From the NCBI GenBank assembly GCA_041389985.1, contig JAWKQS010000041.1, positions 2,074 to 66,073 of the forward strand: a stretch of DNA of 64,000 bases, written 5' to 3'. Origin of the DNA: a bacterium (GTDB taxonomy: Bacteria > Myxococcota_A > Bradymonadia > UBA7976 > UBA1532). Below, piece by piece: positions 54,322 to 57,300 of the stretch (its first letter is position 1; each line of letters starts with the position of its first letter). The position numbers and the translations under genes are program-made. Under the pieces are notes generated by a model. It had not been told where the DNA came from. It did no database searches and worked only from the letters and a program-made list of their open reading frames with translations.

Positions 54322-57300
54322 ATGGGGGAGCTGAAGCGAGGGCTGGTGGCGTGCCTGCTGCTGGCGGCGGCGTGGGGCTGTGACGACGGGGTCGCCCCGG
54401 GCGCCCGCCGGGCGCGGCGCGACGCGGCGAGTCGATCGGGGGTGCGGCACGCTTCATCGAGGGGCCGAGGCCTGCGAACGGCAACCGGGGACGGCGACGG
54501 CTGCTCGGCGCGATGCGGCGCGGGCGCGCGCGGCGATGGAGAAGCCTGTATGAGGGAACTTGCAGGCGCGAGACGGCTGCGCCCGACTGCACGCTGGCCG
54601 CCGTGCGGCAACGCGCTCGAGAGGGGAGGCCTGCGACACGGCGTGGTCGACGCGATGGCTGCGCGGCGGACTGTACCCGCAGGCGCGGTGGACGGCTGCT
54701 GGACGCCGACGAGGCCCGACGACGGCACCGCCGGGATGGCTGCTCGCCGATGTGCGAGCGAGCCGCGGTGCGGTGACGCGTGCTGGACGCCGGCGAGGCC
54801 TGCGACGACGGCCACCGGCCGGGGACGGCTGCGACGCGGCCTGCGCGGTCGAGCCGCCGGGTGCGGGCGGCGTGCTGGAGGCGGCGAGGCGCGCGCCCGC
54901 GCGACGACGGGAACGTGGACGCGGCGGTGCGCGACGCGGCGCAGGTCGATCGGGGGGAGTGCGGCAACGGCTTCATCGAGGGGGCCGAGGCCTGCGATGA
55001 CGGCAACCGGGAGGACGGCGACGGCTGCTCGGCGCGATGCGAGCGCGAGGCGCGCTGCGGCGACGGCCGGCTGGATCCCGGAGAAGCCTGTGATGACGGG
55101 AACTTGCAGGCGCGAGACGGCTGCGCCCCCGACTGCACGCTGGAGCCGCCGTGCGGCAACGGCCGGCTCGACGAGGGGGAGGCCTGCGACGACGGCAACG
55201 TGGTCGACGGCGATGGCTGCGCGGCGGACTGTACCCGCGAGGCGCGGTGTGGCGACGGCGTGCTGGACGCCGACGAGGCCTGCGACGACGGCAACACCCG
55301 GGCCGGGGATGGCTGCTCGCCGATGTGCGAGCGCGAGCCGCGGTGCGGTGACGGCGTGCTGGACGCCGGCGAGGCCTGCGACGACGGCAACACCGAGCCG
55401 GGGGACGGCTGCGACGCGGCCTGCGCGGTCGAGGCCGGGCCGGTGTGCGGGGACGGCGTGCTGGAGGCCGGCGAGGCCTGCGACGACGGGAACGTGGAGG
55501 CGGGCGACGGCTGCGCGCCCGACTGCACGGTGGAGCCTCCGGTCTGCGGGAACGGCCGCGTCGAGGCCGGCGAGGCCTGCGACGACGGCAACCTGGACGC
55601 GGGCGACGGCTGCAGCGCGGCCTGCCGCATCGAGGGATGCGGCGACGGCGAGCTGCGCGCGCCGGAAGAGTGCGATGACGGCGGTGTGATCGCGGGGGAT
55701 GGCTGCGACGCCGACTGTCAGGTTGAGACGGTCGACATCACGGGGGGCGGTCGCTACTTCGGCGGCTTCCAGGCGGGCAGCTTCGACCGCTACACCTTCA
55801 CCCTGGCCGCGCGCAGCGATGTGCGGCTGGACACGAGCGACGGGGGCCCCGGCTGCCCGGGCGACACCGAGGCCCAGATCTTCGACGCCAACGGCGTGGA
55901 GGTGCTGGCGGACGTGGGGGACGGGGAGTGCGCGAGCATCCGCGGCCGCCTGCTGCCGGGCCGCTACCGCGTCCTCGTGCGGGCGGAGGTGGGCATCGCC
56001 CGCTACGCCCTCGACGCCGCCTTCATCCCGGTGCCCGTCCAGGTCTGCGGCGATCGGGTGATCGGCGAGGGCGAGGAGTGCGATGACGGCGGCGCCGTGC
56101 CGGGCGATGGGTGCGACGCCGCCTGCCAGGTGGAGCCCGTGGACATCAGCGCCGGCGGCGACTTCTTCGGGTCGTTCCCGGCCCGCAGCCTGGATCGCTA
56201 TGTGTTTCGCCTGGATGGCCTGTACCAGGTGGATCTGGCCACGGGTGACGGGGGCGGCGGGTGCCCCGGGGACACCGAGGCGCGGCTGACCACGGCCGCC
56301 GGTGATCCGGTGGCCCAGGCGGCCGACGGGGCCGTGGCCCCCTGCGCGGGCCTCGCGCTGCGGCTCGGGGCGGGGGACTACACCCTCGTGGTCAACGGGG
56401 CGGGGGGCGTGGGCGTGGGCGCCTACTTCCTGCGCGCGACGTTCCGCCCCGTGCGCGCGCCGGGGGCCCCCTGCGACCCCGCCGGGCGGCTGGACGTCTG
56501 CGCGGACGGGGCGATCTGCGGCGGCAACCCGCCCCTCTGCCGGGTGGGCGCCTGCGGCGATGGGCGCCTGGATCCCGGCGAGCAGTGCGACGATGGCGGC
56601 GTCGCGCGGGGCGATGGCTGTGATCAGGACTGCTTCGTCGAGGCCTGCGGCAATGGCCGCCTGGACGCCGGCGAGGACTGCGACGACGGCAACCGGGCGC
56701 CCGGCGATGGCTGCGACGCCGCCTGCCGCCGCGAGGCCGCCTGCGGCGATGGCCGCCTGGATCCGGGGGAGGAGTGTGACGATGGCAACCTGCGCCTCGG
56801 CGATGGCTGCGACGATGCCTGCCAGCGCGAGCCCTTCTGCGGGGATGGCACCGTCGATCCGGGCGAGCAGTGTGACGATGGCAACCGCGTCGAGGGGGAT
56901 GGCTGCGACCTCGCCTGCCAGCGAGAGCCCTTCTGCGGCGACGGCGTCCTCAACCCCGGGGAGCAGTGTGATGACGGCAACCGCGTCGCCGGCGATGGCT
57001 GCGACCTGGCGTGCCGCCTGGAGCCGCGCTGCGGGGACGGCCGCCTGACGGCCGGCGAGCAGTGTGACGATGGCAACCTGGTCAACGGGGATGGCTGTGA
57101 CAGCCAGTGTCGCATCGAGGTCGTCGGGCCGCGCTGCGGAGACGGTCGCCTGGACGCCGGCGAGGCCTGCGACGACGGCAATGCCGTCAACGGCGACGGC
57201 TGCGACACCTTCTGTACCCGGGAGGTCTACGATCTCATCGGCCATGACACCACCGTCCAGGGCGCGGTGCCCGCCAACAGCCGGGATGTGTTCCGGTTCG

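Follow-up and report, generated by a model that had tools for sequence, protein, structure and literature searches.

A deletion-riddled repeat copy in a putative DUF4215 lipoprotein gene of a Myxococcota contig is probably an assembly artefact

The stretch of 64,000 nucleotides (nt) of contig JAWKQS010000041.1 (GenBank assembly GCA_041389985.1) that we analyzed, here called the window, carries on its forward strand a long gene for a predicted secreted protein composed of cysteine-rich DUF4215 repeats, in which the signal peptide is separated from the intact body of the gene by a degraded copy of the sequence that follows it. Based on the present data, this degraded copy (copy A) is best explained as a low-accuracy consensus of the long-read type that was left in a mis-assembled tandem-repeat region of this metagenome-assembled genome, and not as a biological state of the gene, a reading to which we assign a probability of roughly 87%. 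Sequence comparisons indicate that three linked anomalies are present in the window, namely a noisy copy at the true site of the first repeat unit, a clean copy (copy B) at the site of a repeat array, and the absence of that array. The real gene would encode a secreted lipoprotein of about 1,240 amino acids (aa), composed of a signal peptide, a linker of about 25 aa, a first repeat unit (unit 1), an array of about seven repeats, and a body with PPC-like domains. In this predicted layout, unit 1 comprises six diverse 32-aa DUF4215 cysteine repeats, while the array comprises about seven 32-aa repeats that are nearly identical to each other.

The gene starts at positions 54322-54390 with a lipoprotein-type signal peptide, MGELKRGLVACLLLAAAWGC, followed by DDG; this part is in frame and looks clean, and the orthologues begin alike. 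Copy A follows at 54391-54919, and the alignment with copy B, the lost coding periodicity, and the linker found in a second assembly mark it as a low-quality version of the linker and of unit 1, the first six diverse DUF4215 repeats, at their genuine position. The last 8 nt of copy A (AACGTGGA), and possibly a 9-nt block (GCGCGCCCG) as well, are already part of the missing array, namely of its first repeat. Copy B (54920-55498) repeats unit 1 together with part of the linker (DAAVRDAAQVDRGE), clean and in frame, and, as judged from its intact frame and from the orthologues, lies at the site of the array. It is followed by the exit repeat (GDGCAPDCTVEPPVCGNGRVEAG, 55482-55580), directly upstream of which about seven near-identical repeats of 96 nt are missing, which is where the array was collapsed. 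The body of the gene (55581-57863) contains further DUF4215/TIGR02232 repeats and PPC and DVUA0089-like domains up to the stop codon, and is clean according to both its domain matches and its identity to the second assembly. All of these parts are on the plus strand.

The nature of copy A is most apparent from its alignment with copy B. Globally aligned, the 579 nt of B (54912-55490) and the 521 nt of A (54391-54911) agree at 498 positions and show a single mismatch, with 80 nt absent from A over 44 runs and 22 surplus nt in A, in four blocks at its two ends. In a rotated register, in which 54412-54919 is paired with 54920-55498, there were 499 identities and no substitutions, with 80 nt deleted from A over 45 runs and one 9-nt insertion. 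An earlier note on this DNA, made from the sequence alone, had described copy A as aligning to copy B almost without substitutions and with many small deletions, which is borne out by these values (498-499 identities, 0-1 substitutions); the three deletions that it quoted as examples are present in the sequence as written. The pattern of small deletions thus stands, with 80 nt in about 45 runs of 1-12 nt, where the note had given about 58 nt in runs of 1-8 nt. In the rotated register, 27 runs are 1 nt long, 12 are 2 nt long, three are 3 nt long, two are 4 nt long, and a single run comprises 12 nt. The deletions are evenly spread along the copy, and the base composition of the deleted nucleotides equals the background. 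Fifteen of the 45 deletions are tandem contractions, and 42% of positions adjoin an identical base, which means that there is no bias towards homopolymers. A homopolymer error of the 454 or Ion type was ruled out as the cause of copy A for this reason.

The window contains a natural tandem duplication that can serve as an internal control, since the segments 27888-28558 and 28522-29197 hold two intact paralogous genes. In their alignment, 593 matches stand beside 67 substitutions and 27 gap nucleotides, a spectrum opposite to that of copy A against copy B. A decaying pseudogene would be expected to accumulate a neutral mixture of substitutions and indels, whereas copy A shows no substitutions over 499 positions and about 45 deletions; small indels dominate it entirely (80 nt deleted, 9 inserted and none substituted), as would be expected of an artefact. 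If the sequence as given were nevertheless right, a newly duplicated block of 579 nt would have been degraded by a process that only deletes, with the gene pseudogenized and uncoupled from its signal peptide. Nothing but the literal sequence of the window speaks for this explanation, which would require about 45 independent deletions with no substitution in 500 nt, against the opposite ratio seen in the control duplication; moreover, the same sites are indel-noisy in the second assembly, and the neighboring sequence also contains frame errors. To our knowledge, no mutational process in bacteria yields a deletion-only spectrum. We regard this explanation as scarcely credible. If true, it would imply a targeted indel mutagenesis, undescribed in bacteria, that silences a large secreted repeat protein. 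The suggestion in the earlier note that a real and unusual decay had uncoupled the protein from its export signal thus found no support, and the uncoupling is attributed to sequence error.

The coding signal behaves accordingly within the gene. The third-codon-position periodicity of the guanine-plus-cytosine (GC) content, which is about 0.9-1.0 in the flanking genes, is flat over 54360-54720, so that the signal is lost inside a coding gene while it is strong on both sides, and a simple frame model scored 53761-54900 as non-periodic. Scans of the window with Rfam and ARAGORN found nothing, and explanations that involve a non-coding RNA, a tRNA or a mobile element were dropped for this reason.

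A further comparison was that with a second assembly, GCA_041390005.1 (contig JAWKQU010000010.1, here L002), which we compared with the window over 45.6-64 kb. The best protein match of the repeat gene, P0001 (794 aa), comes from this assembly and is 100% identical across 78% of the query. Except for a few isolated differences, the two assemblies agree in every base over 45.6-52.5 kb and 55.5-64 kb, whereas inside 52.5-55.5 kb they differ by 5-25% with many indels, the disagreement being confined to that stretch. To judge by these sequences, L002 represents an assembly of the same population as the window. After the signal peptide, the linker of L002 begins as it does in copy A (GTCGCCCCGGGCGCC...). 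A single, noisy unit 1 comes next, which differs from copy B by 18 deleted, 19 substituted and 24 inserted nt. Behind it lie seven near-identical repeats of 96 nt (L002:9318-10004) and then the exit repeat that leads into the body, which is 100% identical to that of the window from 55.5 kb on. No second unit 1 is present in the compared region of L002. About 10 of the 12 deletion runs in L002 coincide with deletions in copy A, and 16 runs of copy A lie at most 3 nt from a deletion in L002, compared to an expectation of 7.3 ± 2.0 from 2000 circular shifts, none of which gave more than 13. These common sites fit a technology-specific, context-dependent sequencing error, and not mutation. Copy A has more deletions than L002 and shares none of its substitutions or insertions.

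Which of the two assemblies is closer to the truth in the disputed stretch was assessed with a sister species as the outgroup (L003, described below). Over 52.6-54.4 kb, the outgroup sides with the window in 100 of the substitutions between the two and with L002 in 34, and for gap positions in 83 and 7, respectively, so that the window is the more accurate assembly there. A real strain divergence was therefore rejected as the source of the disagreement over 52.5-55.5 kb, since the window agrees with the outgroup far more often. L002 is thus mostly noise over this stretch, with a minority of the differences possibly being real polymorphism or errors of the window. The segment of L002 at about 7000-10030, which corresponds to 52.6-55.5 kb of the window, shows noise of long-read grade over about 3 kb with all three types of error, and the genes annotated there are fragmented. 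P0001 itself begins with the out-of-frame sequence MRRRERGGGRRR, owing to a 1-nt deletion in L002.

The outgroup L003 is the locus of HK-STAS-MYXO-10, a Myxococcales metagenome-assembled genome that is the species representative in the genome collection. It is syntenic with the window at a DNA identity of about 85-90% and contains an intact open reading frame (ORF) of 1241 aa (L003:8510-12235). Its product starts with MGESTWRRALLGALLVASAAAC-DD and comprises a lipoprotein-type signal, the linker DDAAPAGGPDPDAAVRDAAQVEQGE, one unit of diverse repeats, 8-9 near-identical repeats, the exit repeat, and the body. The array repeats (CGDGTLDAGEACDDGNLDAGDGCAPDCTVEPR) have a pairwise DNA identity of 85-97%, and their first 20-55 nt are common to the exit repeat. 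A more distant ortholog (68% identical) is encoded at L001:9163-12898 of the JGI contig Ga0558718_02897 (L001), and it likewise begins with a signal peptide, MRRWWILALLAGC-DD, with a canonical LAGC lipobox, followed by the linker and repeats. The ORF of L001 is split inside the repeat region by one extra G near L001:9997-10007 (GGCAACGGCGGTGGACGGC), due to which the deposited protein, P0002 (965 aa), lacks the signal peptide and the first repeats. None of the orthologues examined (L003, L001) has a duplicated linker. The structure of the window is therefore not reproduced in these sequences, as unit 1 occurs just once in each of L002, L003 and L001, in L002 with the array behind it.

The two copies in the window can be assigned to their proper places on this basis. 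Copy B consists of exactly six GACGACGG-delimited units (579 nt), and its protein is about 88% identical to unit 1 of L003. It matches the array repeats that occupy its position in L002 and L003 by only 72-77%, in a 96-nt register and without large gaps, which suggests that it has taken the place of about six of the seven near-identical repeats that make up the array. The linker residues DAAVRDAAQV of copy B match L003, while the earlier linker residues of copy A (VAPGA...) match L002, and the two copies hence jointly represent one true N-terminus. Distances along the gene agree with such an exchange: the signal-peptide anchor (54382) and the exit repeat (55482) are 1100 nt apart in the window, compared to 1286 nt for L002 and 1281 nt for L003, and when the 80 nt deleted from copy A and one repeat are added to the value for the window, the result (about 1264) compares with about 1265 for L002 less its net insertions. 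In summary, copy A can hardly be biological because it has 45 deletions without a substitution and no periodicity, because its sites are indel-noisy in L002, and because the duplication occurs in no relative.

These comparisons also bear on the possibility that the strain truly duplicated unit 1 and truly lost the array, with only the base calls of the first copy being poor. Genes of this type easily gain and lose repeats, as seen from the array itself (about seven in L002, 8-9 in L003), and the junction is compatible with a genuine head-to-tail event. However, L002 has flanks that are 100% identical over about 15 kb and yet a single unit 1 together with the array, and no ortholog has a duplicated linker. 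A genuine recent duplication should appear as two copies in other assemblies with the downstream sequence unchanged, but L002 has a single unit 1 and the array is missing from the window. Two structural events and a failure of the consensus on exactly one copy would be required, together with the coincidence that six units replaced six or seven in register. We consider this possibility improbable.

The layout of the orthologues is also relevant to how the gene should be repaired. The earlier note had proposed that excision of 54391-54911 opens one frame from 54322 to 57863, which is correct as far as the reading frame is concerned (3021 nt, 1006 aa plus stop). As a model of the real gene the proposal fails, since the product lacks 6 linker residues and about 227 further residues (approximately seven 32-aa repeats) compared to L002 and L003; it is 87.7% identical to the L003 protein, in an alignment that is gapped by 6 aa within the linker and by about 227 aa at the array. 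Nor is copy A a removable insert, because its 5' linker (GTCGCCCCGGGCGCC...) is shared with L002, which places copy A at the genuine position of the first unit and makes copy B the misplaced one. The other suggestion of that note, namely uncorrected sequence of the long-read type or a mis-assembled tandem repeat, is supported by all of the comparative evidence. Its proposal to compare orthologues from related genomes, once followed, thus favored the artefact and spoke against the repair, the relatives having a single unit 1 together with the array.

The error spectrum, the loss of periodicity, the confined disagreement with L002 and the single-unit-plus-array layout of the relatives are observed, whereas the exact route by which an assembler would have arrived at the present sequence is one that we infer. 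In this proposed route, the near-identical array would have been collapsed in an accurate contig of the short-read type, with unit 1 and the exit repeat thereby becoming direct neighbors. Such a collapse is expected for short reads, given that the array repeats are 85-97% alike and that their first 20-55 nt are common to the exit repeat. The collapsed contig would then have been positioned on long reads containing the full array, with its head, unit 1, set in the 96-nt register over the array, and this head would thereby have come to lie one array-length too far downstream. The leftover interval, which would comprise the genuine linker as well as unit 1 and about one repeat of the array, would have been filled with a low-depth, deletion-biased long-read consensus. 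In Unicycler, long-read bridges are used where the short-read graph offers no path. Within the artefact reading, we hold this particular route to be somewhat better than an even bet.

A different route to the same artefact would start from a long-read-only draft with a false tandem duplication, in which polishing with short reads was of the winner-takes-all type, the reads all being drawn to whichever copy improved first and the other copy being left unpolished; possible sources of the false duplication are a strain mixture, a haplotype that was not collapsed, and a mis-join at GACGACGGGAACGTGGA, a motif that recurs. It would account for the fact that one copy is perfect and the other riddled with errors. 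That long-read-grade noise can persist in a GC-rich stretch of another assembly is seen in L002, and the Gly-rich upstream gene in the window also changes frame. Polishing nonetheless leaves unexplained why the seven-repeat array is absent, why copy B lies in exact register, and why the length is conserved within one repeat. In addition, copy A lacks the substitutions and insertions of L002 and yet has more deletions, and is thus not simply that draft in unpolished form. We judge this route, including its possible sources, to be unlikely, although clearly less so than a true duplication.

Several points weigh against the interpretation of copy A as an assembly artefact. A run-index search for reads of the locus found none from the source itself and returned only two sludge metagenomes (X1 and X2), which hold 6-9% of the indexed words; the contigs from these on the locus are mostly cross-matches from other cysteine-repeat genes, with one 200-nt contig of X1 matching copy B by 99%, and no junction-spanning contig was found among them. 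Exact-pattern scans of JGI metagenome contigs for the signal-peptide/linker and linker/first-repeat junctions gave no match. L002 is itself noisy here and may share samples or technology with the window, its independence from which is not proven. The junction AACGTGGA|CGCGGCGG would look the same if 579 nt had truly been duplicated in tandem, and the notion that a 9-nt block in the tail of copy A (GCGCGCCCG) is a remnant of one array repeat is speculative, as this block is all that points to such a remnant. Furthermore, the rate of deletions (14%) is high by the standards even of a crude long-read consensus. Finally, the use of a hybrid pipeline for the window is presumed, on the model of activated-sludge Myxococcota genomes of this kind, including the source of L003, for which metaFlye assembly was followed by hybrid assembly of each bin with Unicycler (PMC8518188).

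The window resembles two classes of known assembly faults. Like false duplications and unpolished long-read bridges in hybrid and long-read assemblies, it has an indel-dominated stretch of low accuracy between accurate ones, a duplicate of adjacent sequence at a contig junction, a GC-extreme repetitive region, and an error that is not reproduced elsewhere. It is unlike a simple unmerged overlap of that class, in that the clean copy replaces the collapsed array in register. With short-read (de Bruijn graph) assemblies in which near-identical tandem repeats are collapsed it shares the loss of 7-9 repeats of 96 nt that are present in L002 and L003, but a plain collapse merely shortens a gene, whereas the window adds a noisy extra copy. 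The value of these findings is technical only, and their biological weight is nil, as the gene encodes an ordinary predicted DUF4215 lipoprotein of the Myxococcota. They do provide a warning, as the gene calls in this region are wrong in both assemblies of this population, and the intuitive repair of dropping the noisy copy results in a plausible but wrong protein of 1006 aa that is about 233 residues too short. Noisy duplicates beside collapsed arrays can be recognized from the sequence alone by their indel-only spectrum and the loss of codon periodicity.

The assignment of the protein to its family is clear. It matches Pfam DUF4215 (PF13948) with an E-value of 1e-76 and 253 bits (cut-off 27) over 11 stretches, and the NCBIfam model TIGR02232 ('cysteine-rich acidic repeat') with 2.7e-162 and 526 bits (cut-off 20.8) over 16 stretches, so that multiple repeats of the CxDDGNxxxGDGC type score above the curated cut-offs. 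Other domains in the body are Pfam PPC (2e-7) and NCBIfam NF038127, the DVUA0089 family (3e-10). More than 6000 homologues were found in a protein search, the majority of them in metagenome-assembled genomes of Myxococcota. As in the DUF4215/TIGR02232 proteins of Myxococcota with PPC or DVUA0089-like domains, there are 16-23 repeat matches and a lipoprotein-type signal, and compared to this family the protein has no distinctive feature, its assembly alone being at fault. The lipobox was sought by eye with the pattern [LVI][ASTVI][GAS]C and without a predictor; it reads ...LLLAAAWGC in the window, which is non-canonical at position -2, ...SAAAC in L003, and canonical ...LLAGC in L001.

Directly upstream of the repeat gene lies a gene on the plus strand (52536-54280) with a Gly-rich C-terminal half and no Pfam match, to which no function was assigned. 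Its GC signal at third codon positions switches frame, with two to three frame changes in a Gly-rich stretch of about 90% GC at about 53.7-54.05 kb. Due to these changes, the 591-aa ORF at 52536-54311 is a chimera of the true frame and a frame that is open by chance. The counterpart of this gene in L003 matches frame 3 with its N-terminal 380 aa and frame 2 with its C-terminal 72 aa. Since the gene changes frame, the indel noise in the GC-rich stretch extends beyond copy A, and since L003 switches frame at the same place, indel errors probably persist there in several assemblies.

Elsewhere in the window, the two paralogous genes of the control duplication (27915-28538 and 28548-29177, plus strand) encode lipoproteins of 207 and 209 aa with an LLGC lipobox, about 87% DNA identity and no Pfam match. 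Just downstream of these, a gene at 29488-30288 on the same strand encodes a Tae4 amidase domain (5.5e-20) together with PG_binding_1, and the region 27915-30288 may thus represent a predicted peptidoglycan-amidase effector with duplicated immunity-like genes. The GC content of this region is about 68%, below that of the rest of the window. Short tandem repeats with periods of 15-33 nt and a non-periodic stretch of 1.3 kb were observed among 4861-6180, 38104-38263, 39734-39889 and 41479-41628, and these could represent either low-complexity coding sequence or further problems of the consensus.

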